Assembly (NCBI RefSeq): GCF_000012345.1
Contig: NC_007205.1
Location: forward strand, 60,001-92,000
DNA length: 32,000 bases
Source: Candidatus Pelagibacter ubique HTCC1062
Lineage (GTDB): Bacteria; Pseudomonadota; Alphaproteobacteria; Pelagibacterales; Pelagibacteraceae
Direction: 5' to 3'
The position numbers were made by a program, and so were the translations under genes. Each line of letters opens with the position of its first letter. Positions within the stretch are counted from its first letter, which is position 1. Shown in pieces: positions 1-17,114 of this stretch. The notes beneath the pieces are model-generated. The model was not told where the DNA came from. It did not search any database and saw nothing but the letters and a program-made list of their open reading frames with translations.

Positions 1-68
1 ACACTAAGATGCTTAAGAAATTATAAGATTTTTATCTTTTAAAAGATGGTGTTTAAAAAAAGCAAAAA

Positions 69-2219
69 CTATCCAATTGATATTAAAGTAAGATCATCAC
101 TTAATTTTCCAGATTTAGAGCTGTCAATTATTTTTTTACTAATATCTGATAAGTGTTTCTTCGAATCTTTTGTGTAGTTATCTTCAATTATTTCAATTGA
201 ACCTTCAATACCTATTTCTTGTCCTTCAGCATTTAAACTTTCAGACAATCCATCTGTAAAAACATAAAATTTGTTTCCATTTAAAACTTGTTTATTAATT
301 TTATAAATTGATTTATTTTTTTGGTGAATAACCCCCATCGGCGGCGCTTCACTATCAAAATTTTGGTATTTACCATTTTTGTCTCTAATGATAGCTGGTT
401 GATGTCCCGCATTTACCCATGAAACTTCTTTGGTAATTAAATCATATTTTCCAAGAACACATGTCACAAACATGCCTGATGTTTTGGTGAGAAATAAATC
501 GTTATTCATATGAAGCATCATTTCATCTGGATCTACCTGATCTCTTGACATGACTTCAAATAAAGTAGAGGCTTTTGCCATCACCATTCCAGCATGAACT
601 CCCTTACCTGCTACATCTGCAATTATAAAATTAATACTATCATTATGGGGATAAAAACTAAAAAAATCACCTGAAACTTCTCTCGAAGCAATATTAATTC
701 CTTGCACAGGATAATTTTGTAAATCTCTTTTTGGTAAAAAATTTTCTTGAACTTTTACAGCCAAATTTATTTCTTTGGAAATTCTACTTCGCCACTTTTC
801 TTTTTCATTTTCGCTAACCTCAAGCTTGTTCATCAATTTATTATAATAAAGTCCTATTACCCCTCCTGCAGTGAAAGGATCTTGTGGGCCTCTAACAGAG
901 AGATCTCCACTTTCAGACTGTTTTTCAAGGATTGAAATTAAATCATGTTCTACTGAAACTGCATTATGTTCAGCAATATTTAATCCTAATTCCTCTTGTA
1001 AAGGAGTTACTCTTAATGGATAAAAATAATTTAAAATTTTTAAAATAATATAAGATCCAAAAAATGCGAAAGCACCAATTGCTAATATTCCTATAACCTG
1101 GACTTCAATTTGCTCTAACCTTGTAAGTCCTGTTCCTAATTTTTCTAAATCACTGAACAAACCAACTGAAATAGTTCCCCATACACCTGCTCCTAAATGA
1201 ACTGGCACTGCACCTACGACATCATCTATCTCATATTTGTTTAACAGTTCATTTATAAAAATTGCTACGATTGCACCAATAATACCAACAAAAATTGCCG
1301 TAACTGATGTCATTGAATTACAACCAGCTGTTATAGCAACCAATCCTGCAAGAGGACCTAATATTACATAAAATGGATCTGGTTTTTTAAATAATAAAAA
1401 TGAAATACCTAGTCCAGTTAACAACCCAAAAGCAGCAGAAAGAAATGTATTTATCAATATTAATGGCACTGTTTCATCCATTGCTCCATTACTTCCGCCA
1501 TTAAAACCAAACCAACCAAACCATAAAATTAAGGTTCCTAAAACGGCTAACGGAAAACTAGAGCCAGTAAATTTACCTTTATTAGACTCAGAATATTTAC
1601 CAATTCTTGGCCCTAAAATTAATACAGCAGCAAGTGCAATCCATCCTCCAACAGAATGAACAATAGTGCTACCAGCAAAATCAACAAAACCAAGTTCTGT
1701 TAACCATCCAGTATTTTTAATTTCTCCCGTAACAGCCGATAACTGCATTACAGTATCATTCATATTATTTAGATAACTGGATGACCAAGCCCAATGACCA
1801 ACAATTGGATAAATTATGCCAGTTGCAATTATCGTTATTATTAAATATCCATTAAATTTCATTCTTTCAGCCACAGCTCCAGAAACTATTGTTGCAGCAG
1901 TTGCAACAAACATGGCTTGGAACACAAAATATGTCATGTAATCAGCTTTTTCGGTTTTAAAGAAAAAAAGATCTGTTCCAAAAAAACCATTATAACTTGT
2001 CCCAAACATTAAGCCGAAACCAAAAATCCAAAAAACTACAACTGATAAACCAAAATCAGCAGCATTCTTAAGAGCAACGTTAATACTATTTTTGTGTCGT
2101 GAAAGACCAGTTTCCATACACATGAAACCAGCTTGCATGATGAAAACTAATATCGCACAATCAATAACCCAAAGAGTATCAACAAACGATTTTACAGATT
2201 CCAAACTAATACTTTCCAT
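69..2219 (-). CDS. Ammonium transporter (Amt/MEP) domain fused to a C-terminal PP2C/SpoIIE-type serine phosphatase domain
   Basis: The N-terminal ~400 aa is multi-TM with Amt signatures: AGFMCMETGLSRHKNSINVALKN, VDFAGSTIVHSVGGWIALAAVLILGPRIG and the second pore His in VPVHLGAGVWG. A coiled-coil-like linker follows (NKLEVSENEKEKWRSRISKEINLAVKVQENFLP). PP2C/SpoIIE motifs then follow: SGDFFSFY, IADVAGKGVHAG, FTDGLSES and DDLTLISIG. Confidence 0.85.
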   Translation of the reverse strand: MESISLESVKSFVDTLWVIDCAILVFIMQAGFMCMETGLSRHKNSINVALKNAADFGLSVVVFWIFGFGLMFGTSYNGFFGTDLFFFKTEKADYMTYFVFQAMFVATAATIVSGAVAERMKFNGYLIITIIATGIIYPIVGHWAWSSSYLNNMNDTVMQLSAVTGEIKNTGWLTELGFVDFAGSTIVHSVGGWIALAAVLILGPRIGKYSESNKGKFTGSSFPLAVLGTLILWFGWFGFNGGSNGAMDETVPLILINTFLSAAFGLLTGLGISFLLFKKPDPFYVILGPLAGLVAITAGCNSMTSVTAIFVGIIGAIVAIFINELLNKYEIDDVVGAVPVHLGAGVWGTISVGLFSDLEKLGTGLTRLEQIEVQVIGILAIGAFAFFGSYIILKILNYFYPLRVTPLQEELGLNIAEHNAVSVEHDLISILEKQSESGDLSVRGPQDPFTAGGVIGLYYNKLMNKLEVSENEKEKWRSRISKEINLAVKVQENFLPKRDLQNYPVQGINIASREVSGDFFSFYPHNDSINFIIADVAGKGVHAGMVMAKASTLFEVMSRDQVDPDEMMLHMNNDLFLTKTSGMFVTCVLGKYDLITKEVSWVNAGHQPAIIRDKNGKYQNFDSEAPPMGVIHQKNKSIYKINKQVLNGNKFYVFTDGLSESLNAEGQEIGIEGSIEIIEDNYTKDSKKHLSDISKKIIDSSKSGKLSDDLTLISIG

Positions 2220-2322
2220 TTTCTATCAATTTATAAATATCATCTTTAAATTTATTTTAAAATTTATCAATTGTTAAAGATGCGATTAATTAGCTAAAAT
2301 TAATAATAACTCTTAAAATTTC

Positions 2323-4560
2323 TTATTTACCAATTGCAATAATTGTTAAATCATCATCAAGAATATCATTATCTTTTTTAACGCCATCTTCCACAATTTC
2401 TTTTTTTAAACTTTTTAAACGAATTTCTTCTGTCGCACTTGTTAATTCTTTTTGTAATGAAGAGTTTGTGTGTTTTAGGATTAATTCTTTTACACCATCA
2501 ATTCCTATTTCTTGTTTATTTTCATCCATACATTCTGAAAATCCATCAGTAAAACAGTAAATTCGTCCACCATTTAATTTAAAGCTTTCTAATTGATAAA
2601 CACTTTCATCTTTATGCTTAATGACTGCCAAAGGCATTGAGCTTGAAGGATATTCTTTAAAATCTTTACCCACTTTTAATAAAGTTGGCTGATGTCCAGC
2701 ATTTGCAATTTCAACTAAATCTGTTTTCAAATTATATCTTCCAACAATTGAAGTAATAAAGGTACCAACAGGATTAGTTTCTTTCAAATCATTATTCATC
2801 TCTAATAAAATTTCGTTAGGCTTAAATTTTTGCTTAGCGAAGATCTTAAATAAAGTAATAGCTTTTGCCATAACCATTCCTGCATTCACCCCTTTTCCTG
2901 AAACATCAGATAGGGTGAAATACACCTCATCATCATGAAGGTAAAAATCATAAAAATCTCCCGAGATTTCTCTTGCAGGAATATTTAATCCAAATATTGG
3001 ATAGTTTTCTATATCTCTTTTTGGCATTAATCGTTGCTGAACATTCATTGCAAGTTTAATTTCTTTAGAAACTCTATTCTTCCATTTGTTTTTTTGCTTT
3101 TCACTTTGTTCCAATTTGTTCATTATGACATTATATTGCGTGCCAATAATTCCACTTTCAGTAAAAGGATCTTGTGGTGCGCGGCTTGAATAATTGTCTG
3201 ATTTTGCTTGATTAGTTAATACCTCAAGTAATTCGTGCGTGTCCGTTGATGCATTGTGTTCTGAAATATTTAAACCAAGTTCTTCATGAATTTTACTTAC
3301 TCTTAGAGGGAAAAATGAATTAATAGTTTTTAATATTAAATAAGAACCAATGAAACAAAAAGCACCAATTGAACTTATGCCAATTAGTTGAATATATATT
3401 TGTTCTAATCTTGTTTTTTCAACACCCATCAATTCAAAATTTGCAAACAAAGCAACTGCAATAGTTCCCCAAATTCCACATGCTAAGTGAACTGGTATTG
3501 CACTAACCACATCATCAATTTTAATTTTTTCAAGTAATACAATTGTTGAGCCTGAAATAATTCCACCAATACTTCCTATTATAATTGCATGAGTGGGATC
3601 AACATAAGCACAAGAAGCAGTTATTGAAACTAGTCCAGCAAGGGGACCCGTGATCATAAATAATGGCTCTGGTTTTTTTAAAACAATGATACCCATAACA
3701 CTTGAGAAAATAAGTCCAAAGGATGCTGATAAAAAAGTATTAATTAAAATTAATGGAATTTTTAAATCCATTGCACCATTAGCACCTCCATTAAATCCAA
3801 ACCAACCAAACCACAAAATTAAAGCACCTAAAGCTGCCATTGGTGTATTACTTCCTTGAAAAGATTTTTTTTTATCATCTTCTCTAAATCTTCCAGTACG
3901 GTTACCAACTACCAGTAATACTGATAAAGCAATCCATCCTCCTACAGAGTGTACAACGGATGCACCTGCAAAATCTAAATATCCTAATTGACCTAACCAA
4001 CCAAATTTTTCAGCAGGATTTTCAAAATTAAATGCCCAAGACCAGTGACCTACAATTGGATAAAAGAGGCCAGAAACTAATAATGTAATAATTATATATG
4101 AGAAAAACTTTAATCTTTCTGCAACTGCACCTGAGATAATAGTTGCAGCTGTTGCAACAAACATTGCTTGGAAGACAAAATATGTTTGATAGCCTGCAAC
4201 CTTAGTGGTGAAGAAAAAAAATTTGGTACCAAACAGTCCTGATACACTGGTTCCATACATTAATGCGAAACCAAACGCCCAAAAAACTACAACAGATATT
4301 CCAAAGTCTGAAACATTTTTAAGGGCAACGTTAATACTGTTCTTGTTCCGAGACAAACCAGTCTCTAAACACATAAAGCCTGCCTGCATTAAAAAAACAA
4401 GGATTGCACAAATTAAAAGCCAAAAGGTATCTAAATTTGCTTGTAAGATTGCATCTAAGCGAAATTCTAATGCATTTAAAGCTCCCTTATTAGTAAGCTC
4501 TAATTGATTTATGTTGGACTGCAGCTTATTGAGCAATATCTGAGTATCAGCTGCAGTCAT
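2323..4560 (-). CDS. Ammonium transporter domain fused to PP2C/SpoIIE phosphatase (paralog of the 69-2219 gene)
   Basis: Same architecture, colinear over the full length: AGFMCLETGLSRNKNSINVALKN, LDFAGASVVHSVGGWIALSVLLVVGNRTG, IPVHLACGIWG, then SGDFYDFY, LSDVSGKGVNAG, FTDGFSEC and DDLTIIAIG. It has an extra ~45-aa N-terminal extension. Confidence 0.85.
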   Translation of the reverse strand: MTAADTQILLNKLQSNINQLELTNKGALNALEFRLDAILQANLDTFWLLICAILVFLMQAGFMCLETGLSRNKNSINVALKNVSDFGISVVVFWAFGFALMYGTSVSGLFGTKFFFFTTKVAGYQTYFVFQAMFVATAATIISGAVAERLKFFSYIIITLLVSGLFYPIVGHWSWAFNFENPAEKFGWLGQLGYLDFAGASVVHSVGGWIALSVLLVVGNRTGRFREDDKKKSFQGSNTPMAALGALILWFGWFGFNGGANGAMDLKIPLILINTFLSASFGLIFSSVMGIIVLKKPEPLFMITGPLAGLVSITASCAYVDPTHAIIIGSIGGIISGSTIVLLEKIKIDDVVSAIPVHLACGIWGTIAVALFANFELMGVEKTRLEQIYIQLIGISSIGAFCFIGSYLILKTINSFFPLRVSKIHEELGLNISEHNASTDTHELLEVLTNQAKSDNYSSRAPQDPFTESGIIGTQYNVIMNKLEQSEKQKNKWKNRVSKEIKLAMNVQQRLMPKRDIENYPIFGLNIPAREISGDFYDFYLHDDEVYFTLSDVSGKGVNAGMVMAKAITLFKIFAKQKFKPNEILLEMNNDLKETNPVGTFITSIVGRYNLKTDLVEIANAGHQPTLLKVGKDFKEYPSSSMPLAVIKHKDESVYQLESFKLNGGRIYCFTDGFSECMDENKQEIGIDGVKELILKHTNSSLQKELTSATEEIRLKSLKKEIVEDGVKKDNDILDDDLTIIAIGK

Positions 4561-4573
4561 AATTTTATTTTAA

Positions 4574-4903
4574 TTAATCTACTAATTTTCTAGCTTCACC
4601 AGCATCAGTAATAATCTTATCAACACTTACTACTTTAATAACTTCAAAGCCTGTTCCAAGTATTGCTTTTTTATAATCTTCATTAGATAAATCAGATTTA
4701 TCAGGGTAAGATGATACCGCAACACCTTCTGGCCATGAGACTTTAACAGTAGCAGATGGGCTAGCTGCTTGAAGTGCTTTAGTTACCATTTTTTGGCATT
4801 TAATACACATCATTCCATTTACTTGGGCAATTTGAGTTTGAGCTGCAAATAAATTGGTTGAAAATAAAACAAAACCTAAAAATAGTATATATTTTTTGAA
4901 CAT
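4574..4903 (-). CDS. Secreted heavy-metal-associated (HMA; MerP/CopZ-like) domain protein
   Basis: N-terminal signal peptide (MFKKYILFLGFVLFSTNLFAAQ) followed by the GMxCxxC-type motif NGMMCIKCQKMVTKAL. The size fits a single ferredoxin-like HMA fold. It sits 13 nt upstream of the Amt::PP2C gene on the same strand. Confidence 0.55.
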   Translation of the reverse strand: MFKKYILFLGFVLFSTNLFAAQTQIAQVNGMMCIKCQKMVTKALQAASPSATVKVSWPEGVAVSSYPDKSDLSNEDYKKAILGTGFEVIKVVSVDKIITDAGEARKLVD

Positions 4904-5035
4904 AGTTTTTCCTATTGTTAATTATAAGTCAAAGCTATCACGCATCAATTCATTTTAAAATTCGTCAATCGCCCAAAATGAGCCTTTTTGATTAAGATGA
5001 ACTCAAATATCTATATTTCTTGAATAATTTATATA

Positions 5036-5326
5036 TTATCTATGAATACTCATTGGATCAAAATAACAATCCATATGATCTATAGTTTCAAAAAAAATTT
5101 CATTTAACTCACTAGAATGAACCGTTGGACAAATTTTTTCTACATTTAATTCATTAATATAATCTTTTTTAAATTTTTTCATTGTTGAGGAGCCAGCATA
5201 AGATGCTGAAGCTTGTAAAATACTTCCAGAGTTAACTAGAGTTAAGCTTGGCCCAAGTGCTGCAGAATATGGACCGCAATTATTTAATAACGGTATAAGC
5301 AAGAATATTAAAATAATTTTTTTCAC
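5036..5326 (-). CDS. Hypothetical small lipoprotein
   Basis: Signal peptide with a lipobox-like LLNNC (MKKIILIFLLIPLLNNCG). No recognisable domain. Confidence 0.4.
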   Translation of the reverse strand: MKKIILIFLLIPLLNNCGPYSAALGPSLTLVNSGSILQASASYAGSSTMKKFKKDYINELNVEKICPTVHSSELNEIFFETIDHMDCYFDPMSIHR

Positions 5327-5398
5327 ATCATCAATTTATGCAAGAATATTTAATTTGAAACTGTAAAACTATCCATTATGGGTGGTTAGCTAATTTTT

Positions 5399-5836
5399 TT
5401 AGCAATCATCGCCTCTAGTAAAATTGCCGTTACGACTAAGGATTAATTGGCAAGCTCCATCGATTTCTTTAGCAATTATATTAAAATTTGAAGAACCTAT
5501 GCTTGCAACACAAATTTCATAACCCATATCTTTACCAATTTGATCTCCTCCACCAAACAAAATTGTTTCAATATCATTTGATGTTGATGAGGTAGGTGTG
5601 CAGCTATCATTATCCTGCGTGTAATAATTTCCACTATTTGAATATTCTTCTGTTTGAGCTAGTGATATTTGTAGCATCACATTTTTTGTAGATTTTTCTT
5701 TAGTGCCTGAAATATAACCGCTGTAAGTAATAACTCCTACAGAAGCTAAAATACCAATTATTGCTACCACAACTAAAAGCTCAACCAGGGAAAACCCTAG
5801 TGAGCTTTTAATTTTTATTTTTTTTGTTTCTTGCAA
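5399..5836 (-). CDS. Type IV pilin-like protein (second pilin; possibly minor or PilE-like)
   Basis: Class III signal with prepilin cleavage/methylation motif: SSLG|FSLVELLVVVAIIGILASVG, with Phe+1 and Glu+5. It has an unusually long basic leader (MQETKKIKIKSSLG) and two Cys pairs in the C-terminal half. It starts 9 nt after the upstream pilin stop. Confidence 0.8.
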   Translation of the reverse strand: MQETKKIKIKSSLGFSLVELLVVVAIIGILASVGVITYSGYISGTKEKSTKNVMLQISLAQTEEYSNSGNYYTQDNDSCTPTSSTSNDIETILFGGGDQIGKDMGYEICVASIGSSNFNIIAKEIDGACQLILSRNGNFTRGDDC

Positions 5837-5845
5837 TCGAGATGA

Positions 5846-6331
5846 TTATTCTATTGCAACAGCATTAGTTAGTACGTCAACAGTTGCGTCGTCACCATAC
5901 TGTGTTGAAACGGTAATAGTTCCAGCATCATCCCCTGTTATTGTTGTAACACCTTTTCCTGATGCTAGACATGTTGTACTACCATCTGAAGCCGTTGGCA
6001 CAGTACTACCGTCTGTTACTCCTTTACAAACTGGCGTGTATGTGTTTTTAAAATCTGCTAGTGCAGCAACAGCACCACTCATGATTAAAGCTTCTGTTCT
6101 GCCTGAACATGTTAAATTTCCACTCATTGCAGTAGACTCAGTACCCATGTTACATTTTTGAATTTCAGCAGCTAAATATTTTGTTACTGCCCCTTGGTTT
6201 GATTTAGAAGCATTAATTTTTGCACTCTTAGTGTAACCATTGTAAGCAACAACACCTACCGCAGCTAAAATACCTATAATTGCTACAACAACTAGCAATT
6301 CAATAAGTGTAAAACCTTTATTATTTTTCAT
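5846..6331 (-). CDS. pilA: Type IVa major pilin candidate
   Basis: Short leader plus MKNNKG|FTLIELLVVVAIIGILAAVG (Phe+1, Glu+5). The globular part is Ser/Thr/Gly-rich with two Cys pairs (CNMG..LTC and CKGV..TTC). It is the first gene after a 158-nt divergent intergenic region. Confidence 0.8.
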   Translation of the reverse strand: MKNNKGFTLIELLVVVAIIGILAAVGVVAYNGYTKSAKINASKSNQGAVTKYLAAEIQKCNMGTESTAMSGNLTCSGRTEALIMSGAVAALADFKNTYTPVCKGVTDGSTVPTASDGSTTCLASGKGVTTITGDDAGTITVSTQYGDDATVDVLTNAVAIE

Positions 6332-6489
6332 AATTTCCTCTGTTATTAGTTATTATTATTAAATTTATTATAATTATTGATGATGTAAACTAAAAATCTT
6401 ATTATATTAAATAATAATCAAAGATAATTGACCATATTGGGTTTACTTGTTTCTTATTTTTGTTAATAGCTATAAATAGTAAATAAAAT

Positions 6490-6774
6490 ATGAAATATAA
6501 AGTTACAGATAATGAAAATGTAAGCACTGTTTTTCTTACTGGAGAAATAGATATGGATGTTGCAGATGAGGTAAGAGAAATTGTTTTTCCTTTAATTGAT
6601 GCTGGAAAAGAAGTTCATTTAAATTTAAAAGATGTACCCTACATGGACTCTTCTGGTATATCGATAATTATAGAAAGCAATCAAAGAGCTCGAGAGAAAA
6701 ATACTAAAGTTGAACTTAAAGAGGTTAGTCAACCTGTTGAAAAAGTTCTAGCAATGGCAAGAAAGTTTTTATGA
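6490..6774 (+). CDS. STAS-domain anti-sigma-factor antagonist (SpoIIAA/RsbV family)
   Basis: 94 aa with the conserved phosphorylatable-serine context YMDSSGISIIIES (compare DSSGL in SpoIIAA/RsbV). Its 4-nt ATGA overlap with the next STAS gene suggests translational coupling. Confidence 0.8.
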   Translation: MKYKVTDNENVSTVFLTGEIDMDVADEVREIVFPLIDAGKEVHLNLKDVPYMDSSGISIIIESNQRAREKNTKVELKEVSQPVEKVLAMARKFL

Positions 6775-7070
6775 CATACAAAATTACAGAAGAAGACAAT
6801 ATAAGCACCATATTTTTAGATGGTGAAATAGACATGGATAAAACGGATGAAGTTAAGGGAGTTATCTTTCCTGTTATCGACTCTGGTAAAAATGTTGCTT
6901 TAAATCTAAGTAATGTTCAATACATGGATTCTTCTGGTATTTCAGTTTTAATAGAAAGTCATCAAAAAGCCCTTGAGAAGGGAACCAAGCTTGTCATTAA
7001 AGATGTGAGTAAATCTGTTTTAAAAGTAATCATGATGGCAAAGTTAGAACAAATTTTAAATTTGGAGTAA
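6771..7070 (+). CDS. STAS-domain anti-sigma-factor antagonist, second tandem paralog
   Basis: 99 aa with the same YMDSSGISVLIES motif. 54 of 94 aligned positions are identical to the upstream paralog by my hand alignment. Confidence 0.8.
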   Translation: MTYKITEEDNISTIFLDGEIDMDKTDEVKGVIFPVIDSGKNVALNLSNVQYMDSSGISVLIESHQKALEKGTKLVIKDVSKSVLKVIMMAKLEQILNLE

Positions 7071-7077
7071 ATAAATT

Positions 7078-7512
7078 ATGAGTTTAGAAAACTTTAGTCA
7101 TTCAGAAAAAAAAGATTTTTTAGTTAGCTCAGCAAGTTTGAAAGATGTCAGAGCTTTTTCTAGAGATGTTTTTGAAAAATTTAAAATTGATGAAGATTTA
7201 AGAGAAGAGTTAGTTTTAGCGATTGCTGAAGCTGCGCAAAATATAGTTAAACATGCATATAAAGATATGCCTGACACTCAAGATAAAATGGTTGTAAGAA
7301 TATCTTGTAATGATGATGTTCTAGAGATTTCTTTCTTTGATAAAGGCAAACCAGTAGAAAAAAGCAAAGTTAAACATAGAGCGATCGATGATATTAAACC
7401 AGGTGGACTAGGAACATTTTTCATTCAACAAATTATGGATTCAATTAATTTTGAACCAGGAAAAGAACCCTGGATTAATAATTTAGTTTTAACTAAAAAA
7501 TTAAAAAATTAG
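7078..7512 (+). CDS. RsbW/SpoIIAB-like anti-sigma-factor-type serine protein kinase (HATPase_c)
   Basis: 144 aa with an N-box-like EAAQNIVKHAY and a G-box-like KPGGLGTFFIQQIMD. It lies immediately downstream of the two STAS genes, the classic antagonist-kinase order. Confidence 0.75.
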   Translation: MSLENFSHSEKKDFLVSSASLKDVRAFSRDVFEKFKIDEDLREELVLAIAEAAQNIVKHAYKDMPDTQDKMVVRISCNDDVLEISFFDKGKPVEKSKVKHRAIDDIKPGGLGTFFIQQIMDSINFEPGKEPWINNLVLTKKLKN

Positions 7513-8741
7513 TTAATTAAAGCACCCACATTAAATATTGGTGAGTACATGGCTATCATTAAACCACCAATCATTACTCCCATGAAAACAATCATGATAG
7601 GTTCAATTAAAGCAGACATGTTATCGACTGTAGTATCAAATTCTTCTTCATAATAAGCAGATACTGAATTAAACATTTCATCTAATTGACCTGTTTGTTC
7701 TCCAACAGAAATTAATTGACTAAAAGTTGGTGGGAAGAGTGGTTCTTTTAAAAAAAGTTTTGTTAAGGTATCACCAGAGAACACACCTTTTTTTACACTC
7801 TCTAGTGCATCCGTTATCACATCATTATTACTAACTGATTTTGCAATTTCTAAACTCTCTAATAAATTTACACCAGCAGCACTTAAATTACCTAAAATCA
7901 ATGCAATTCTTGCCAGTAGAGATTTTAAGATCATATCTCCAAAAATAGGTAATTTTAAAATTTGTTTATGCCATCTAAAACGAATTGCAGCATTTCTTTT
8001 TACAATAAAATTAAACCCGAAATATCCACCTATTCCACCAAACAGAATTACTTTTCCACCTGTACCACTTAAAAAATCACTCATTGCCATGATGGTTGCT
8101 GTTGCAGCGGGTAATTCTAAGCCCATTCCATCGTACATTTTTGCAAATACTGGAACTACTTTAATCAACATAAAAGCACTTACAGTAATCGCTACCGTAA
8201 ACATGATCGCTGGATACATTAAAGCTCCCTTAATTTTTTTCTTAATCTTTTCTTTTTTCTCTAATGAATCTACTATTTTAAGTAAAAATACATCTAGCTT
8301 ACCACTTGCTTCACCAGCTTTAATCAAGTTGACATAAATATTATCAAAATATTGAGGATATTTTTCAAAACATTTTGATAGGTTCACACCCCCTTCTAAA
8401 CTTTTTCTAATATCTTCTATAATGTCTTTAAGAGCAGGACTTTCTAATTGGTCCCTTAACATTATTAAAACCTGCAAAATAGGTAAGCCCGCCTTAACCA
8501 TGGTTGCAAATTGCTTTGAGAATATAAGAATTTCTTCTACTTTAACTTTTTTTTTACCAAAAAGAGATGAGCCACCTGATTTTTTTTTTGCTTCACCTTT
8601 TTTTTTCTTAGACTTAATTATGTTGGTGATTATTACTTTTTTTTCTTTTAATAAATGAGAAGCTTCATCAAGGTTGATTGCCTCAATATCTCCTTCTACA
8701 TATTTACCTTCGGATATTCCTTTATAAGTAAAAGCTTCCAT
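7509..8741 (-). CDS. pilC: Type IV pilus inner-membrane platform protein (GspF/PilC family)
   Basis: 410 aa with duplicated GspF-type repeats (FSKQFATMVKAGLPILQVL / LARIALILGNLSAAGVNLLESL) and three TM segments. It follows pilB with a 2-nt gap. Confidence 0.9.
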   Translation of the reverse strand: MEAFTYKGISEGKYVEGDIEAINLDEASHLLKEKKVIITNIIKSKKKKGEAKKKSGGSSLFGKKKVKVEEILIFSKQFATMVKAGLPILQVLIMLRDQLESPALKDIIEDIRKSLEGGVNLSKCFEKYPQYFDNIYVNLIKAGEASGKLDVFLLKIVDSLEKKEKIKKKIKGALMYPAIMFTVAITVSAFMLIKVVPVFAKMYDGMGLELPAATATIMAMSDFLSGTGGKVILFGGIGGYFGFNFIVKRNAAIRFRWHKQILKLPIFGDMILKSLLARIALILGNLSAAGVNLLESLEIAKSVSNNDVITDALESVKKGVFSGDTLTKLFLKEPLFPPTFSQLISVGEQTGQLDEMFNSVSAYYEEEFDTTVDNMSALIEPIMIVFMGVMIGGLMIAMYSPIFNVGALIN

Positions 8742-8743
8742 TT

Positions 8744-10495
8744 TTATTCGCTTGAAAGAATTCTCTCATACTCTCTAAAATTAAGCTCACCAGATGCAAT
8801 CATTCTTCTACCCATATCTTGCATCGTTCTAAATCCTTCCTTAATAGCTATTTCTCTTAATTCAGGAGTGGTTGCTTGTTTTAAAATAGCTTCTTTAATT
8901 GGTTTTGATACCACTAAGATTTCATAAATACCTTGTCGACCTTTGTATCCTGAGTCACTACATTTTGCACAACCTTTACCTTTGATGGCTTTTACTTTTG
9001 AAGCGTCTTCATCACTAAACCCCATATCTTTAAGAACCTTAGGATTAACATCATCATCAGGCACTCTACAATCTTTACAATTTTTTCTAGCTAGTCTTTG
9101 GGCTACAACAAGTTGGCAGGCAGCACTTATTAAATAATCTGGTGTTCCCATGTTTTGTAATCTAGTAATAGTACTTGGGGCATCATTAGTGTGTAGAGTA
9201 CTAAATACTAAGTGACCTGTAAGGGCAGCCTTTAATCCGATATCAACTGTTTCTTTATCCCTCATCTCACCAACTAGAATAATTTCAGGGTCTTGTCTTA
9301 AAAAAGATCTTAAAGCTTTAGCAAAAGTAAAACCGATATCATCTTTAATTTGTACTTGTCCTACACCATCTAATTCATATTCTACAGGATCTTCAGCTGT
9401 TAAAATATTTAAATGGGGCTTACTTACTTCTTTTAAAATACTATATAACGTTGTTGATTTCCCAGATCCTGTTGGTCCAGTTACCAAAATTAATCCCTGA
9501 CTACCGTGAATTCCTTTTCTTAGACTTTCTAAATCTTGCTTTTCAAAATTTAATTGTTCAAGGGTAATATCTCCTGCATCTTTGTTAAGAATACGCATAA
9601 CAATTCTCTCATTATTTGCAGTAGGTAAAATTGATAAACGTAAATCAACTACTTTATTGCCAATTTTAAAATTAATGGCTCCATCTTGTGGCAATCTTCT
9701 TTCTGCAATATCTAATTTACCCATAATTTTAAATCGAGTAACCACTGCTCCATAGTTGTCATGTAAAAACTGTCTATAGGTTTCTTGTTCTTGAAGCATA
9801 CCGTCTAATCGGTATCTTACTCTTGAACTAAATCGGTAAGGCTCAATATGAATATCACTGACACCCATTTTAATTGCATCTGCTACCACTGCCGTACTAA
9901 ATTTTATTACCTCTGACTCATTTTCAATTGCTTCAATATCTTCTTCTGGTTTATTGTCTAAAACTTCCCCTGCATCTCCTAAATCTGTTTCAAAAGTTTT
10001 TGTTTTTCTCCTATTCTCATTTCGAATTGACGCAATAGTTACTTCATCTGTTTCACTTGATAATCTTTCAATATATTCAGAAATATCACCTATTTTTGCA
10101 GCATGAAGTTCTATGTTTTTTTTTGTAATAGCTTTTAAATTTCGCATCAATCCCAATTTTGAACTATCTGGGATTGCCATGTGTAAAGTTTTTCCATCAA
10201 TTTTAAATGGTGCTACAAAATTCATCTTAATATAGTTTGATGGTAAAACTGTTTTTACTTCTTCAGTAATTTCAACTGACTTTAGATCAATTATTTCTAG
10301 ATTTTGTTCTTTAATTAATAAATCAATTATTTTTTTTTCATCAGTAAGCTTTAATTCAAATATTGCATCAATTTGAGATTTATTGTTTTCAGTGCTTACT
10401 TTTTTAATATCTATTAAATCTTTTCCAGAAATAATGTCATTATCAATTAAGACATTAACTAAATTAATTTCACTCTCTCTACTTATTTTAAACAT
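8744..10495 (-). CDS. pilB: Type IV pilus assembly (extension) ATPase, GspE/PilB family
   Basis: Walker A GPTGSGKSTT, Asp box and Walker B (ILVGEMRD), His box (GHLVFSTLHTND) and a C-terminal tetracysteine cluster (CKDC...CAKC). An N-terminal T2SSE_N-like domain is present. Confidence 0.9.
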   Translation of the reverse strand: MFKISRESEINLVNVLIDNDIISGKDLIDIKKVSTENNKSQIDAIFELKLTDEKKIIDLLIKEQNLEIIDLKSVEITEEVKTVLPSNYIKMNFVAPFKIDGKTLHMAIPDSSKLGLMRNLKAITKKNIELHAAKIGDISEYIERLSSETDEVTIASIRNENRRKTKTFETDLGDAGEVLDNKPEEDIEAIENESEVIKFSTAVVADAIKMGVSDIHIEPYRFSSRVRYRLDGMLQEQETYRQFLHDNYGAVVTRFKIMGKLDIAERRLPQDGAINFKIGNKVVDLRLSILPTANNERIVMRILNKDAGDITLEQLNFEKQDLESLRKGIHGSQGLILVTGPTGSGKSTTLYSILKEVSKPHLNILTAEDPVEYELDGVGQVQIKDDIGFTFAKALRSFLRQDPEIILVGEMRDKETVDIGLKAALTGHLVFSTLHTNDAPSTITRLQNMGTPDYLISAACQLVVAQRLARKNCKDCRVPDDDVNPKVLKDMGFSDEDASKVKAIKGKGCAKCSDSGYKGRQGIYEILVVSKPIKEAILKQATTPELREIAIKEGFRTMQDMGRRMIASGELNFREYERILSSE

Positions 10496-12051
10496 TATAA
10501 AATTCTTGGAGCGATAAATACCAATAACTCGTTCATTGTATCAGAATTTGATTTTCCACTAAGTACTTTTCCTAGAATTGGTACTTTTGACGTTCCTGGA
10601 ACACCTTGTCTATTATTCGCTACGTTATTTTTTTTAATACCACCAATTACAACTATATCCCCATCAGCTACTAATAATTTTGTATTTATCTCCATTTTAT
10701 TTACACCTACTGATGCTGCATTTGCTCTATTTGGAGTATCATTGTTTACTTGAATTGAAAGCATAACGTTTCCATCACCTATGATATTAGGAGTAACTAT
10801 CAGTTTTAATGATGCATCAACTGGTTTATCTTCCCCTTCTCCACCATCAATATAAATTGTTTCACCCTGATTAATACTTGCTTGTTGATTATCTAATGTA
10901 AATAATTTTGGATTAGATACTGTTTTTGATAAGCCTTGAGCTTCTAAAAAATCAAGTTCAAGTTTTAAAACAGCAGAACCTGTTTTTTTCAATATTCCAA
11001 TTCCACTTGTTGCAGCAGCTGACCCAAAATTTACTAAATTATCTGTTCCAGCACCGCTTGTAAAAGCACCTGTTGAATCAGATAATGCAGCCCCTGAACC
11101 AGATGCAGCTCCTACACTACTACCTCCTTGTGTACCACCCATTCTTAAACTTTTTCTTGTATAAGCGGCTCCAAGTCTTTTTCCTAAACTTTGCTCAAAT
11201 GTTGAAGTAGCTTCAACTATAAAAGCTTCTATTAAAACCTGTTTTGTTCTTTTATCAATTTCTCGAATAACTTTATCAACGATATCTAAATCTTTCTCTT
11301 TACCTCTAACAATAATTGATCTTGTGGTTGCTTCTTCCGTTACTTGTATTGGTATAAAATTTCCATTCGTTCCAACAGTTGTAAATAATTCTGTGATTGT
11401 GGCTTTAGCTTCTGATGGAGTTATATAATAAAGTCTAAAAATTTCTGAAATAATTGGTTCTACTGAATCTTCTAATTCAACTTTTTTCTTAACTGCTGAA
11501 GCTCTCGCTGATTTATAACCTTCTTGTGACGTTAGATTAGCAGGAGTAGAAACTCTAATAATATTACTTGCTACATCTATGTCTGCTGCATAATTTTTTA
11601 AATCTAATAATGCATTAAATGCTTTATCCCATGGAACATTATCTAACTCTGCACTTATTGATCCTGCCACATCGTCACCTACTAAAATATTAATTTGACC
11701 AACTTCAGACATTAATTTCATTGCTTCTTTAAAATCTAAAGCTTGAAATTTAAAAGAAACATTTTGTTTTAAAGATTTGAAATCTTCCGAAATTAATAAA
11801 TAATTTCTCTCTTTAACAGATGATATTTGTTTCCTTTTTTTAAGCTTTACGACATCACCTTCAGCAGGAGTTGGTCCCATTTCTACACTTTTTTCAACCT
11901 CTAGTTTTCCAGTTTTCTTGATATCAGTTTTTATTAGTGGGGTGTCGTGTTTAAAAGAACCAGTGTTTTTAGCAAATTTTTCAGCACAACCTGTTAAAAA
12001 AATAAATAAAAAAGGTAAAATTAAAAATGATATTCTTTTTTTAAATTTCAT
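10495..12051 (-). CDS. pilQ: Type IV pilus secretin with an N-terminal lipobox
   Basis: C-terminal secretin signature (VVIGGIKKNNVANNRQGVPGTSKVPILGKVLS...ELLVFIAPRIL) and N0/secretin_N-like repeats. The signal peptide ends in LTGC. Its stop shares one nucleotide (10495) with the pilB start. Confidence 0.85.
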   Translation of the reverse strand: MKFKKRISFLILPFLFIFLTGCAEKFAKNTGSFKHDTPLIKTDIKKTGKLEVEKSVEMGPTPAEGDVVKLKKRKQISSVKERNYLLISEDFKSLKQNVSFKFQALDFKEAMKLMSEVGQINILVGDDVAGSISAELDNVPWDKAFNALLDLKNYAADIDVASNIIRVSTPANLTSQEGYKSARASAVKKKVELEDSVEPIISEIFRLYYITPSEAKATITELFTTVGTNGNFIPIQVTEEATTRSIIVRGKEKDLDIVDKVIREIDKRTKQVLIEAFIVEATSTFEQSLGKRLGAAYTRKSLRMGGTQGGSSVGAASGSGAALSDSTGAFTSGAGTDNLVNFGSAAATSGIGILKKTGSAVLKLELDFLEAQGLSKTVSNPKLFTLDNQQASINQGETIYIDGGEGEDKPVDASLKLIVTPNIIGDGNVMLSIQVNNDTPNRANAASVGVNKMEINTKLLVADGDIVVIGGIKKNNVANNRQGVPGTSKVPILGKVLSGKSNSDTMNELLVFIAPRIL

Positions 12052-13226: not shown

Positions 13227-15770
13227 CTATATTTTACCTGTTTTAATTTTTACAAACACTCTAAAGCCTTTCATTGTAGCACCACCTGCTGTAGATTTTG
13301 GTAATCGCATTGATGATAAAGATGCTTGCTCAACCAATTTTTGATTTCCTAAATTTTCTATAAATTTCAATATATCTTGATCACTTGCAGCTATTCCTTG
13401 AATAGTTAATCTTCTAGATCCATTAAATTCAACTTGATCAAATTTTACACGGTTTGGAACACTTGAGGCTACTTGAGCTAAAATTCTATAAGTTAATTCT
13501 TTATTTGATTTAAGTGTTCTACTTAATTTTAAAGACGTATTAATTACACTAAGTTCTTTTGAAACTATTTTTTTCTGTTTAATAATTTTAGCATGATCTA
13601 TTTTTACAGTTTCATATTGTTTTAATTTTTTATTATAGGAAGCAATATTCCAAAAAGATAAACCAAATAATACCACATAAATTGCAACTACAGCAGCAGT
13701 AATACCCTTGAATGCAAAACCTGAAATTGCTTTCATCTTCTTTTGCTTCATTACATTTGATCTATCTGGAAGAAGATTTATATTTTTAACTGCAGTAACA
13801 AATTTATAATAACCAAAGACATCAAGTTTTCTAAAGGCTAAGCCAACAGAAGTAGATAGATAAGATCTATTTAACTTATTATCTAAAATTTGTTGATACT
13901 GACTTGGAATTTTTAATCCTTCAGTAGGATCAAAAGTGTTAAATCCAACATTCATTAAAATTTTTCTAAAACTTCCTAAATATTCGTCTACATTTTTGAT
14001 ATCTGAAACAACTTTTATGTTTCGAATTCTCTTTTCATATTTAGTCTCAAAATCTTGAATTGCTTGCTTAACTTGAGTAACATATCTTCTAACTAATCCT
14101 TCTTTTTCTTCAGTATCTTGAGAATCTTGTAAAATTTTTCTATCTTGCCCTCTAATAAAAATATCAGTTATTATTGGGTTATTATTATAGAGGATCATTA
14201 AATAATTTTCATCTAATCCAAATTCTAAAACAGCAGTTAAATTGGCATCCTCAGTTTTATTTGTTATTTGATTAACTTGATCAACTGATGACTTTAAAGC
14301 AAAACATTTAACATCTATGATTACAGGATTTAAACCTGCATTTTTAATTATTGAAGTATAACTATTTATATCTGTTAATTTTGATGCAACGAATAAAATA
14401 TCCATTGTATTTTCTTTATCATTTCTATTTATGACTTGATGAAAAATAGAATAATCTTCCAAACTATCTGTTAGTTGAACTAGGTTTTCCCACAATGAAT
14501 TAGTTTCGATTGCTTTATTTAATTCATCTTCTTTCATTAAAGGTGCGGTGACTACTCTTATGATTGCACTAGTTACCGGAATAGCAATTGCTGCATTTGG
14601 TGAAGTTATTTTGTATTTTTGAATTGCTAATACTAATTCTTCTGAAAATTTATCCGCATTATCAATTGGAGTACTATCATCTGTAATGTCGACGGGGTGA
14701 ATATGTAATTTTTCTAACACCCATTGATTAGCTTTGTTACTAGAAACTTGGACTATTCTTATTTCTTTATTTGCTAACTCAATACCAATTATTTCTTCGC
14801 CTTGAACACTAGATTTACCTAATTTGGATTTGAAAAAATTTTGTATTTTTGATTTATAATTTCCAACTTTAGAATTATTAAAAGATGATTTTTTTATATT
14901 TTTAGCAAAATCTGGTTTTTTAATTTTAATTTCCTTAATTTTTCCAAAAATATTTGATAATTTACTTTTTACCTGATCTTGGGTAGATATTTCTGAGTTT
15001 TCATTTAATGGAACACTTGAAGTTTGTGGTTGTGCTTCATTATTACTTTGATTGGTTGTTGAAATATCAATTTGTGAAGATTCACCCTCTTCTGGCTTAA
15101 TATTTTCTTCAATTTTTAATTTTTTACTTTCTTCATGAACATCATCAAACCATTTTTCCAAAATTGGTATTGCATCATCTAAATTTGTTGTTCCAGAAGA
15201 TGAAATTTTTTGTTTACCATCAATATAAAGTCTACCTACCCAGTTTCTTGATTTAAGTTCACCTTTATATTTATCTTGCCTTACATATATATGTAGTCTT
15301 CCATCTTTTTTATGAATTACCTCATGCTCTTTTTTTTGTTCCTCATTATTAGTATTTGATGCACTTACATTTTGCTCAACAGATTCATCTTGAGATTGTA
15401 AAGTTTCTGAATTTTCAGTTAAATTATCATTTTCATTGGATTTTTCTGATTCATTATTATCAGTTTCTTGAGGATTTAAAGTATCAGTTGAATCGTTTTC
15501 AGATTGGTTTTCCTGATCACTCTTTAAAGTCTCTTCATCATTATTAGTATTTGATGCACTTACATTTTGCTCAACAGATTCATCTTGAGATTGTAAAGTT
15601 TCTGAATTTTCAGTTAAATTATCATTTTCATTGGATTTTTCTGATTCATTATTATCAGTTTCTTGAGGATTTAAAGTATCAGTTGAATCGTTTTCAGATT
15701 GGTTTTCCTGATCACTCTTGAGAGTATCTTCCTCTTTATAATCAAATTTGTCTTTATTATCTTCGTCCAT
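13227..15770 (-). CDS. PilM-PilN fusion protein with a ~325-aa N-terminal extension
   Basis: Residues ~325-660 are PilM-like actin-fold (EIIGIELANKEIRIVQVS...). Residues 663-847 are PilN: the INLLPDR motif at about 13764-13790, a TM (ITAAVVAIYVVLFGLSFW) and a periplasmic domain. The N-terminal extension is acidic and Asn/Ser-rich with a duplicated 65-aa unit, followed by a Lys-rich block. Confidence 0.75.
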   Translation of the reverse strand: MDEDNKDKFDYKEEDTLKSDQENQSENDSTDTLNPQETDNNESEKSNENDNLTENSETLQSQDESVEQNVSASNTNNDEETLKSDQENQSENDSTDTLNPQETDNNESEKSNENDNLTENSETLQSQDESVEQNVSASNTNNEEQKKEHEVIHKKDGRLHIYVRQDKYKGELKSRNWVGRLYIDGKQKISSSGTTNLDDAIPILEKWFDDVHEESKKLKIEENIKPEEGESSQIDISTTNQSNNEAQPQTSSVPLNENSEISTQDQVKSKLSNIFGKIKEIKIKKPDFAKNIKKSSFNNSKVGNYKSKIQNFFKSKLGKSSVQGEEIIGIELANKEIRIVQVSSNKANQWVLEKLHIHPVDITDDSTPIDNADKFSEELVLAIQKYKITSPNAAIAIPVTSAIIRVVTAPLMKEDELNKAIETNSLWENLVQLTDSLEDYSIFHQVINRNDKENTMDILFVASKLTDINSYTSIIKNAGLNPVIIDVKCFALKSSVDQVNQITNKTEDANLTAVLEFGLDENYLMILYNNNPIITDIFIRGQDRKILQDSQDTEEKEGLVRRYVTQVKQAIQDFETKYEKRIRNIKVVSDIKNVDEYLGSFRKILMNVGFNTFDPTEGLKIPSQYQQILDNKLNRSYLSTSVGLAFRKLDVFGYYKFVTAVKNINLLPDRSNVMKQKKMKAISGFAFKGITAAVVAIYVVLFGLSFWNIASYNKKLKQYETVKIDHAKIIKQKKIVSKELSVINTSLKLSRTLKSNKELTYRILAQVASSVPNRVKFDQVEFNGSRRLTIQGIAASDQDILKFIENLGNQKLVEQASLSSMRLPKSTAGGATMKGFRVFVKIKTGKI
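15344..15733. repeat. Two-copy 195-bp in-frame tandem duplication inside the pilMN 5' region
   Basis: 15344-15524 is identical base for base to 15539-15719 (181 nt, hand-checked), giving a period of 195 nt or 65 codons. The unit encodes EETLKSDQENQSENDSTDTLNPQETDNNESEKSNENDNLTENSETLQSQDESVEQNVSASNTNN. Confidence 0.9.
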
Positions 15771-15834
15771 AAAACTTATAAATAAAAATTAATATTTAAA
15801 TTGTTAATTGATTCTCTAACACAAAATTAATAAA

Positions 15835-15845
15835 ATTCTAACACA
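15835..15845 (-). promoter_or_regulatory. Candidate extended -10 element (TGTGTTAGAAT read on the minus strand) for the pilMN operon
   Basis: The reverse complement of attctaacaca gives TG-T-TAGAAT, i.e. TGn plus a 5/6 match to TATAAT. It lies ~65 nt upstream of the pilMN ATG (15770). No good -35 sits at 17 nt; TTGAAC at 15862-15867 is 21 nt away. AT-rich context makes chance matches likely. Confidence 0.25.
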
Positions 15846-16138
15846 AGATTATAATCATTATGTTCAAAATGGGTTGAATTTAATAAGAAACTATAAAATA
15901 TTCAATTAAATCAACAGTTTATTAAAATCATTGAAAAAAATTAAATTTAAGATATTTTTTTCTAAATAATATTTTCTCTAACACATTTATCATAATTTTA
16001 TCTTTTTATATTGTGTTAGAAATTTAATATTTTTTTCTATTTTTAAAAAATAAGTAAAATAGCTATTTTTTATTAAAACAACTTTTAATTGTTTTTTGTG
16101 TGAGAGAAAATTTTTTTTGTGTGAGAGAAAAATTTATT

Positions 16139-16149
16139 TGTGTTATAAT
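16139..16149 (+). promoter_or_regulatory. Candidate extended -10 element TGTGTTATAAT on the plus strand
   Basis: Perfect TGnTATAAT within the duplicated context tttatttgtgttataatt. It points rightwards into the palindrome array, with no ORF downstream. Confidence 0.2.
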
Positions 16150-16167
16150 TTTTTTAATTTTTTTTGT

Positions 16168-16311
16168 TTAGAATTATTCTAATATATTTTTTTTTCCTAC
16201 ATTAGAAATATTCCAAACTATTTTTTTTCTCTTTAGAAAGATTCTAATATATTTTTATTTTACTTTAGAAAGATTCTAATATATTTTTTGCAAATTTTAG
16301 AATTATTCTAA
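16168..16311. repeat. Five-unit ~32-bp tandem array, each unit carrying the palindrome TTAGAA-N3-TTCTAA
   Basis: Palindromes lie at 16168-16182, 16202-16216 (TTCCAA, one mismatch), 16233-16247, 16265-16279 and 16297-16311. Spacings are 34, 31, 32 and 32 nt. Each is followed by a TATATTTTT-like tract. Confidence 0.85.
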
Positions 16312-16502
16312 TTTATAAAAAAAAAAAATTATTTTTTTTCTCTAACACAAAAATTTTATTCTAACACATTTAAAAAAAAAAAAAATTATTTCATTTTGTG
16401 TTAGAAAATTAACATAATATTCTTTTTTAAAAAAGTAAGCAAAATCAACGTTTTTAATATTATGAATATAAAACATAAAATGTGTTAGAGCTATATTTAT
16501 TT

Positions 16503-16513
16503 TGTGTTATAAT
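16503..16513 (+). promoter_or_regulatory. Candidate extended -10 element TGTGTTATAAT on the plus strand (second copy)
   Basis: Same 20-nt context as 16139 (tttattttgtgttataatt). It points toward the less AT-rich repeat segment 16690-17114 and would run antisense into the 3' end of the GAF::PP2C gene. Confidence 0.2.
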
Positions 16514-16586
16514 TATTAATATTATCATATTTTTAAAAAAGTCAATAAAATCAACATTTTTTATATTTTCAATAAATTTATTGATT

Positions 16587-16660
16587 TGTGTTAGAGATAA
16601 TTTTAATTTTTATCCTATGTGTTAGAAATAATTTATATTTTTTATGCTGTGTGTTAGAGA
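16587..16660. repeat. Three-unit ~32-bp tandem array starting with TGTGTTAGAR-ATAA
   Basis: Units start at 16587, 16618 and 16650 (spacings 31 and 32 nt): tgtgttagagataatttt..., tgtgttagaaataattta..., tgtgttagagataaatat... Confidence 0.8.
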
Positions 16661-16857
16661 TAAATATGAATATTAACAAAAGCTCAAACAGCCTTACATC
16701 ACTCATCCCTTTGGGATAATATATATAAATTTTAACATTGATCCATCAATTGTTGATTATTGCGGATGGCAATATTAGATTTTGATACAATTTATATTAT
16801 GGTTAAAGCCTAAATCTGGGGACTAAACTCAAATTAACTAATTAAATCTGATTTGTG

Positions 16858-16958
16858 GCAAATTATGAGAGATTTCACTCTAAATTAGAGATTTGACTAC
16901 CAGTATAGGATTTATAGCAAATTATGAGAGATTTCACTCTAAATTAGAGATTTGACTA
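16858..16958. repeat. 59-bp-period direct repeat (42-nt identical core x2, plus a degenerate third unit to ~17026) with an internal palindrome CTCTAA-A-TTAGAG
   Basis: 16858-16899 equals 16917-16958 (gcaaattatgagagatttcactctaaattagagatttgacta). Internal palindromes lie at 16878-16890 and 16937-16949. The third unit (~16968-17026) retains TTCTAA...GATATTTGAC...TTAGAA. Confidence 0.85.
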
Positions 16959-17114
16959 GGATTGCAGGATTTATTTCTAATTATCAGATATTTGACCCAA
17001 AATTAGAATTATTACATGAAACTGGGGGTAATTACTCTTATTAACTGGAAACTATCCCATAAACATTTTTACTCTATCTTAAAGAGTGTAAATAAAAACA
17101 TCTATCCATAATTA

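Follow-up and report, generated by a model that had tools for sequence, protein, structure and literature searches.

What do two tandem fusions of an ammonium-transporter (Amt) domain with a PPM-type (PP2C/SpoIIE) phosphatase sense in Candidatus Pelagibacter ubique HTCC1062, and on which proteins do they act? The two fusions, here called AmtP1 and AmtP2, are encoded side by side in a 32-kb stretch of the genome of this SAR11 bacterium (NC_007205.1, 60,001-92,000), which we call the window and whose own numbering is used below. SAR11 bacteria are among the most abundant organisms of the ocean. The answer that we favour, and that we think will probably hold, is that in each protein an ammonium-receptor Amt acts through a HAMP-like linker on a PPM phosphatase, which would dephosphorylate STAS proteins encoded nearby, with type IV pili as the likely output. 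Locus tags were assigned from the numbering of the accessions and from one published locus tag. The genes and the parts of the first protein are the following.

69..2219, minus strand: AmtP1 (SAR11_0049), 716 amino acids, Amt domain of putative receptor class, HAMP-like linker and PPM phosphatase (open reading frame (ORF), Pfam, NCBIfam, structure model)
957..2180, minus strand: Amt domain of AmtP1, amino acids 14-421
720..956, minus strand: linker of AmtP1, amino acids 422-500
72..719, minus strand: PPM/SpoIIE phosphatase domain of AmtP1, amino acids 501-716
2323..4560, minus strand: AmtP2 (SAR11_0050, AAZ20875.1), 745 amino acids, architecture as in AmtP1 (ORF, Pfam, conservation)

Both genes are uninterrupted ORFs of the minus strand, exactly where the first-pass annotation, made from the bare sequence, had reported two Amt-phosphatase fusions. 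In Pfam searches, PF00909 (Ammonium_transp) matched AmtP1 and AmtP2 with E-values of 7e-112 and 6e-110 over model positions 2-397, and the SpoIIE/PPM family PF07228 matched them with E-values of 2e-35 and 1e-28. Both proteins also pass the curated cut-off of TIGR00836 ('amt'), with scores of 400 and 392 bits against 343. We give practically no credence to the possibility that sequencing or assembly errors joined separate transporter and phosphatase genes: besides the continuity of the reading frames, the exact 716-residue AmtP1 protein is present in 226 blocks of independent assemblies, AmtP2 stands as AAZ20875.1 in the finished HTCC1062 genome, and among the matches listed (86-98% identity) each of 120 clusters of orthologues has both domains and a length of 710-716 amino acids. 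The architecture recurs, moreover, in other phyla as well as in the SAR11 orthologues. Together these observations refute the artefact reading. The motifs quoted earlier were found as described, namely DFAGxxVH (D180, H188) and the second pore histidine (H341 in AmtP1, H358 in AmtP2) in the channel, and SGDF (D518), DVxGKG (D535), TDG (D656) and DDLT (D708/D709) in the phosphatase. Their residues, including the five aspartates of the phosphatase, do not vary among 29 Amt-PPM proteins of several phyla or among 75 orthologues from SAR11.

As regards the input, the best matches of the Amt domain to PDB sequences were Sd-Amt1 (E-value 3e-117) and then Ks-Amt5 (1e-84), followed by weaker matches to Af-Amt1 (4e-43) and to AmtB of E. 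coli (about 1e-29). An AlphaFold2 model built on 29 Amt-PPM sequences, with a predicted local distance difference test score (pLDDT) of 85.7, was compared with known structures by Foldseek. It returned Sd-Amt1 in its ON state and in its OFF state with template modelling (TM) scores of 0.94-0.95 and 46% identity, the identity to AmtB being 25%; with the full-length model, the top 50 hits were Amt structures only. Both Sd-Amt1 and Ks-Amt5 have been shown experimentally to bind ammonium and to signal without transporting it.

The pore of AmtP1 comprises W145, F104, F239, S243, H188 and H341, and all of these are conserved in both fusions except for the vestibule residue, which is Ser in AmtP1 and Ala in AmtP2. 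The N1/N2 site of AmtP1 is made up of Q29, E36, K51, N52, D55, F56, T110, S113 and Y125. For this site the authors of the Sd-Amt1 study gave the receptor signature QX6EX15NX2D(F/T)X54-60TX2(S/T), which is complete in both AmtP1 and AmtP2; each named residue aligns with its Sd-Amt1 equivalent, and the sole deviation is that the long spacer has 53 residues, one fewer than the published 54-60. The counterparts of the Sd-Amt1 switch residues K44, Y119 and F25 are likewise present in both proteins. Across 62 AmtP1-type and 13 AmtP2-type SAR11 orthologues, the residues of the receptor site and of the pore are invariant, again with the exception of the vestibule Ser/Ala. Sequence and model thus support the assignment of both Amt modules to the ammonium-receptor class.

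Two points weigh against this assignment and so against the reading that we favour. The asparagine N269, which narrows the exit of Sd-Amt1, is replaced by Leu in AmtP1 and by Thr in AmtP2, and the N1/N2 signature is also found in plant AMT1 transporters, so that the two proteins may transport as well. They could in fact be mainly uptake transporters for ammonium or methylammonium, transceptors like fungal Mep2 and plant AMT1, with a phosphatase that serves local autoregulation or minor signalling. Such a role would agree with the complete Amt domain and its intact pore (Trp, Phe gate and twin His), and the authors of a proteome study of 2013 did list SAR11_0049 and SAR11_0050 as Amt paralogues and treat them as transporters. 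We nevertheless hold it to be unlikely. Both in sequence and in fold, the nearest proteins are ones that bind but do not transport ammonium, and in that same study the levels of the two proteins did not change under nitrogen limitation, whereas those of the plain Amts SAR11_0818 and SAR11_1310 did. Furthermore, the linker and the phosphatase are under strong purifying selection, and the same cassette of Amt plus linker is found attached to kinase, STAS and histidine-kinase outputs, as described below.

The linker was first described as a coiled-coil-like segment of about 60 residues. A linker is there, but it is not a plain coiled coil: in the structure model of AmtP1, a HAMP-like helix (423-437) is followed by a connector, which contains GDLSVRGPQDPFT, and then by a long helix (451-494) leading into the phosphatase. 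Across SAR11, conservation of residues 422-500 equals that of the Amt domain (84-85% identity), and E409, G412-N414, E417, H418, R443, P448-T450, G453, Y459 and N460 are invariant across phyla. A motif GDLxxR..(D/E)PFTxxGxIxxxYN is common to these linkers, to a Scalindua Amt-histidine-kinase and to an Amt-PAS-STAS protein; its core, GDLxxR..PFTxxGxIxxxYN, resembles the connector and second helix of HAMP domains. The linker aligns to the HAMP region of Sd-Amt1. A Pfam HAMP search on both linkers, at E-values up to 10, gave no match, and 'HAMP-like' is therefore the most that we claim; two distant Amt-PPM proteins gave partial matches to PF00672.

The phosphatase domains align with the structures of SpoIIE and RssB. 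In RsbU a helical linker controls the PPM phosphatase through dimerisation and a switch element formed by the helices alpha1 and alpha2, and this mode of control has been proposed as general.

As regards the substrate, the earlier proposal had pointed to two STAS genes about 2 kb away, and these were indeed found, at a distance of 1.9 kb from where the second fusion starts. They are followed directly by a kinase gene, and the neighbourhood holds the following features.

5399..6331, minus strand: two type IV pilin genes, 145 and 161 amino acids, divergent from the STAS operon (N_methyl motif, synteny)
6490..6774, plus strand: STAS1 (SAR11_0055, AAZ20880), anti-sigma-antagonist type with DSSG motif, published phosphopeptide pS54/pS55
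6771..7070, plus strand: STAS2 (SAR11_0056, AAZ20881), DSSG motif, published phosphopeptide pS54
7078..7512, plus strand: RsbW-like Ser/Thr kinase (SAR11_0057), HATPase_c_2 (Pfam)
7509..12051, minus strand: pilC, pilB (with MshEN domain) and pilQ, constant neighbours of the kinase gene in SAR11 (Pfam, synteny)
17115..18461, minus strand: GAF-SpoIIE phosphatase (SAR11_0064, AAZ20889), the third PPM (Pfam)

Both STAS proteins pass the cut-off of TIGR00377 and share the motif YMDSSG, in which S54, the first Ser of DSSG, presumably corresponds to Ser58 of B. subtilis SpoIIAA. The kinase matches PF13581 with an E-value of 2e-19. The phosphatase domain of SAR11_0064 shares 32-33% identity with those of AmtP1 and AmtP2. 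In the phosphopeptide table published for HTCC1062 in 2025, STAS2 is phosphorylated at S54, and STAS1 at S54/S55 on the evidence of a single, weaker, doubly phosphorylated peptide. These peptides lie in the DSSG motif, and therefore the switch is expressed and phosphorylated in vivo.

The same phosphoproteomic study reported SAR11_0057, which it detected in the proteome, as the sole Ser/Thr kinase of HTCC1062, counted 1014 phosphosites, and stated that no protein phosphatase was known in the genome. The three PPM phosphatases of the window contradict this statement; the authors evidently overlooked them, two being annotated only as ammonium transporters. They are also at odds with the report, for related genomes, that no other phosphatase domain was found. 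AmtP1 (AAZ20874) is absent from the protein table of the phosphoproteomic study and AmtP2 is present. Further published phosphosites in the window are on the kinase (S2, S76), on PilB (T543), on the PilM/PilN fusion (S272), on AAZ20887 (Y92) and on the pilin AAZ20879 (T97/T99).

The whole window is a type IV pilus cluster. It encodes two pilins, PilC, PilB with an MshEN domain, PilQ, a PilM/PilN fusion and PilD, as well as PilY1-like and PilX-like proteins, minor pilins and a PilT-like ATPase. The STAS and kinase genes are divergent from the pilin genes and share one intergenic region with them. No sigma factor gene was found among the ORFs of the window, which means that the output is non-canonical or encoded elsewhere. 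A pilus-related output is the most likely one because the module is embedded in the pilus cluster, shares its divergent region with the pilins and has no sigma factor beside it.

We also examined whether this arrangement is general in SAR11. The kinase was scanned for in one genome per species, which gave 160 relatives, and synteny was read from the best 80 of the 160 loci; these belonged to Pelagibacterales in every case. In species with 67-97% identity in the kinase, its gene was always located between a pilin gene and pilC (75/75 loci), with pilC adjoining it in all 75 and pilB in 70/70. One STAS gene was beside the kinase in 38 loci and two in 37. Where the flank was long enough, at least one Amt-PPM gene stood next to the pilins in 56 of 61 kinase loci (92%), and 11 of those 56 had two. 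Starting instead from the Amt-PPM side, 24 of 28 metagenomic loci with at least 1.5 kb of upstream sequence were linked to pilin or STAS genes. Many SAR11 pilus clusters hold a CHASE2-SpoIIE phosphatase with FecR-like and putative beta-barrel partners, which suggests interchangeable sensor phosphatases that feed one STAS/kinase switch. This CHASE2-SpoIIE set was seen just downstream of Amt-PPM, beside a homologue of orf96, for example at 869..5985 of locus L026 (also in L021-L055, L154, L169, L172 and L176).

The linkage is not without exceptions. In a large and widespread group of orthologues that share 87-90% identity with AmtP1 (L001-L006, L129-L132), Amt-PPM is a lone gene flanked by GATase and by photolyase-like/PsiE/argG genes. 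Up to a distance of 10 kb it has no pilus, STAS or kinase gene beside it, and therefore linkage to these genes is not obligatory. This group, one member of which comes from a gMED single cell, corresponds to the published Amt-GI5. We considered whether the lone copies could be remnants of a deleted pilus cluster and rejected this, given that the flanking GATase, photolyase-like and PsiE genes are never found beside pilus-linked copies; for the same reason the lone copies are taken to occupy a different locus.

To find relatives outside SAR11, 1.8 billion representative proteins were searched with the linker plus phosphatase, and a homologue search followed. The Amt-PPM architecture is not exclusive to SAR11. 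We found triple fusions of Amt, PPM and RsbW-type kinase of about 855 amino acids, and Amt-PAS-GAF-PPM-kinase proteins of about 1160 amino acids in Acidiferrobacterales, Nitrospiraceae and Chloroflexota. Other architectures were Amt-PAS-PPM in cyanobacteria, plain Amt-PPM in SAR324, Amt-HAMP-PPM and Amt-PAS-STAS. One triple fusion, in an unrelated genome, has two STAS genes and another kinase within 6 kb, and a SAR324 copy of Amt-PPM has a STAS gene 5 kb away. Such fusions provide independent evidence for Amt-receptor modules as inputs of partner-switching pathways. The non-SAR11 loci examined had no pilus genes, and the pilus output is therefore at best specific to the lineage.

Both these loci and the lone SAR11 genes would fit a different output, in which the switch controls something global, that is, how much of the housekeeping or heat-shock sigma factor is available (as for chlamydial RsbW) or Ser/Thr phosphorylation in general, and its place in the pilus cluster is a historical accident of a flexible island. 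A cell with a single reported Ser/Thr kinase, yet with more than a thousand phosphosites, and the fact that canonical RsbW proteins bind sigma factors, point in the same direction. We regard a global output as rather improbable, since the kinase was met nowhere but between pilin and pilC, shares the divergent intergenic region with the pilins, and has no sigma factor gene near it in the window.

Over their whole length the two paralogues share 55% identity (Amt 62%, linker 52%, phosphatase 45%), and their receptor-site and catalytic residues are identical. Differences are seen at the periplasmic entrance: Ser is the vestibule residue of 62/62 AmtP1-type proteins, Ala that of 13/13 AmtP2-type proteins; AmtP1 has a loop insertion of 14 residues that AmtP2 lacks, and AmtP2 has a conserved periplasmic N-terminal helix of 30 residues. 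Each type is found in distant lineages of SAR11, the divergence being similar, which makes the duplication an old one, followed by differential loss. Directly upstream of AmtP2 lies one further small gene.

4574..4903, minus strand: orf109, small protein, hydrophobic stretch at the N-terminus, segment containing CxxC (ORF, synteny)

Wherever both were detected, an AmtP2-type gene had orf109 immediately upstream of it, in two different gene orders. A Pfam search with orf109 gave no match, and its single-sequence structure prediction was unusable (pLDDT 47).

The existence of two copies had been read as a hint of two affinity ranges or two ligands. The fully conserved differences at the entrance lend this some support and could fit distinct affinities or access routes. 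One or both paralogues might still sense another ligand, such as methylated amines, AmtP2 being the likelier candidate, possibly together with orf109. We judge this quite unlikely. It would account for the entrance differences, each fully conserved, and for the constant position of orf109, and the authors of the 2013 proteome study did speculate on methylamine substrates; set against this, the pocket that is the same in both paralogues excludes methylammonium in Sd-Amt1, and the Phe gate and the twin His are unchanged.

Returning to the reading in which ammonium receptors act on the STAS proteins, we propose the following mechanism. From the periplasm, ammonium would move into the pore up to the twin histidines and then occupy N1/N2, as in Sd-Amt1 and Ks-Amt5. 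The resulting rearrangement would pass through the HAMP-like element and the long helix into the phosphatase and set its activity, the phosphatase domains probably pairing through their switch helices as in RsbU. The substrates would be phosphorylated SAR11_0055 and SAR11_0056, which SAR11_0057 would phosphorylate again, and the GAF-PPM SAR11_0064 (in other strains, the CHASE2-PPM) may report other signals to the STAS/kinase switch. As effector on the production or the activity of pili, either the released kinase or free STAS protein would then act. That the occupancy of an Amt domain is read out as dephosphorylation of a STAS protein had been suggested at the outset, and the suggestion gains support from the receptor class of the Amt modules, the catalytic residues, the synteny, the fusions of other phyla and the STAS phosphopeptides.

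Besides the exit residue, the plant AMT1 signature and the loci away from pilus genes, already discussed, three considerations count on the opposite side. That ammonium controls the phosphatase, whatever the sign, is an inference of ours. A trimeric Amt that drives a presumably dimeric phosphatase is geometrically awkward, a problem that Sd-Amt1 shares. Finally, no downstream target of the kinase or of the STAS proteins was identified.

A precedent for a pilus output exists in Nostoc punctiforme, where the development of hormogonia and pilus-driven motility depend on the HmpU-V-W partner switch, with the STAS protein as the output. In published HTCC1062 data, the pilus protein SAR11_0061 was 1.58-fold up under nitrogen limitation. 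A bolder form of our reading, possible in our opinion but held with clear doubt, is that in SAR11 the two Amt-receptor phosphatases, which would read external ammonium and differ in the chemistry of their entrance, and the GAF/CHASE2-phosphatases, which would read further signals, gate the deployment of pili through a sigma-independent partner switch, with a STAS protein or the kinase acting directly on the pilus machinery, for instance for DNA uptake as a source of nitrogen and phosphorus. The module would then be the only dedicated Ser/Thr kinase-phosphatase circuit of the cell and a form of nitrogen sensing independent of PII.

Some further observations concern the rest of the window. Between the pilM/N fusion and the gene of the GAF-phosphatase, a stretch of 1.3 kb (15771..17114) has no ORF longer than 47 amino acids, a G+C content of about 19% and several short tandem-repeat arrays with periods of 21, 25, 32, 59 and 65 bp, which is unusual for a streamlined SAR11 genome. 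The PilM/PilN fusion itself (13227..15770, minus strand, 847 amino acids) has an acidic N-terminal extension of 320 residues, and this extension holds a 195-bp tandem duplication that is 97% identical (repeats at 15339..15739). The MshEN domain binds cyclic di-GMP (c-di-GMP) in pilus ATPases of the MshE type. Here such a domain is carried by the PilB ATPase (8744..10495, minus strand), and Sd-Amt1, the closest Amt receptor, signals by c-di-GMP.

As for regulatory elements, a promoter scan of positions 1..7600 returned fewer promoter-like sites than shuffled sequences, and a terminator scan of the same positions gave none that was convincing. Folding of the pilin/STAS intergenic region did not support a structure (z = -0.18). 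Rfam gave no match over the window, hence no riboswitch like those reported for plain Amt genes, and no tRNA genes were found in it.

Part of this picture had been published. A 2025 paper in Microbiome on the SAR11 gMED pangenome described 'Amt-GI5', a protein of 716 amino acids with an Amt domain, a 'HAMP-like' linker and a C-terminal PPM-type phosphatase, counted SAR11_0049 and SAR11_0050 among proteins of this kind and suggested a role as ammonium sensor. It judged Amt-GI5 to be exclusive to SAR11 in its data set and found neither a cognate partner nor another phosphatase domain; STAS proteins, anti-sigma factors and pili are not mentioned there in the context of Amt-GI5. The first-pass annotation was thus right about the architecture and the sensor idea, and it overstated their novelty, because this paper had already described the same genes as putative ammonium sensors. 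Its statement that no Amt-PP2C fusion had been characterised experimentally agrees with our reading of the literature, in which we found no experimental work on any Amt-PPM protein. What is new here is the residue-by-residue assignment to the receptor class, the downstream partner switch with its published in-vivo phosphorylation, the tight association with pilus genes across SAR11, and the finding that Amt-PPM, Amt-PPM-kinase and Amt-STAS proteins are widespread.

The reading that we favour joins two published gaps, an Amt-phosphatase without a partner and a single Ser/Thr kinase without a known phosphatase. Precisely, one pilus cluster holds three PPM phosphatases, a kinase and two candidate STAS substrates, and two of these phosphatases carry putative ammonium-receptor modules. 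SAR11 lacks the usual nitrogen regulators PII (GlnB), GlnD and NtrBC, and the literature leaves unanswered by what means it senses nitrogen; a recent paper called the role of the SAR11 type IV pilus unclear and speculated that it helps in nitrogen-poor water. The hypothesis is concrete, and it can be tested biochemically without SAR11 genetics. It would also give the ammonium-receptor family a third kind of output, and Amt-PPM receptors are widespread beyond SAR11, often fused to a partner-switch kinase or to STAS.

Among known systems, the closest match by sequence and by structure is Sd-Amt1 of Shewanella denitrificans (PDB 8qj3, 8qj4), an Amt-HAMP-diguanylate cyclase. Like the SAR11 fusions, it has the twin His, the same N1/N2 ligands and the Lys and Tyr of the switch, and in it too a helical linker (HAMP there, HAMP-like in SAR11) joins the Amt domain to an enzyme on the cytoplasmic side. 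It differs from them in its output, which is a GGDEF cyclase that makes c-di-GMP and not a PPM phosphatase, in its Asn-269, which the SAR11 fusions replace by Leu or Thr, and in its linker, that of the SAR11 proteins being below every Pfam HAMP threshold. The second-best match, Ks-Amt5 of Candidatus Kuenenia stuttgartiensis (PDB 6eu6, 40% identity), is an Amt-histidine kinase sensor with the same N1/N2 site and likewise a repurposed Amt that drives a fused signalling enzyme. Its histidine kinase belongs to a two-component pathway, whereas in the SAR11 fusions we propose the removal of phosphate from STAS proteins and partner switching.

With the RsbU, RsbP and SpoIIE systems, the module shares the acidic motifs of the PPM domain, a helical linker N-terminal to it, STAS proteins with DSSG and an RsbW-type kinase. 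Unlike in those systems, the sensor is an integral-membrane Amt instead of an RsbT-binding, PAS or GAF domain, there is no associated sigma factor gene, the genes are located in a pilus cluster, and three phosphatases are present per kinase. HmpU-HmpV-HmpW also has a tie to type IV pili and a sigma-independent partner switch, as is proposed here; no Amt input has been described for it, it belongs to an unrelated lineage, and its link to pili is genetic, whereas ours is syntenic. Lastly, Amt-GI5 is of the same protein family as AmtP1 and AmtP2, but was described as a lone single-gene island without identified partners, and to that description the present analysis adds the STAS proteins, the kinase, further PPM phosphatases, the linkage to pilus genes and the relatives outside SAR11.

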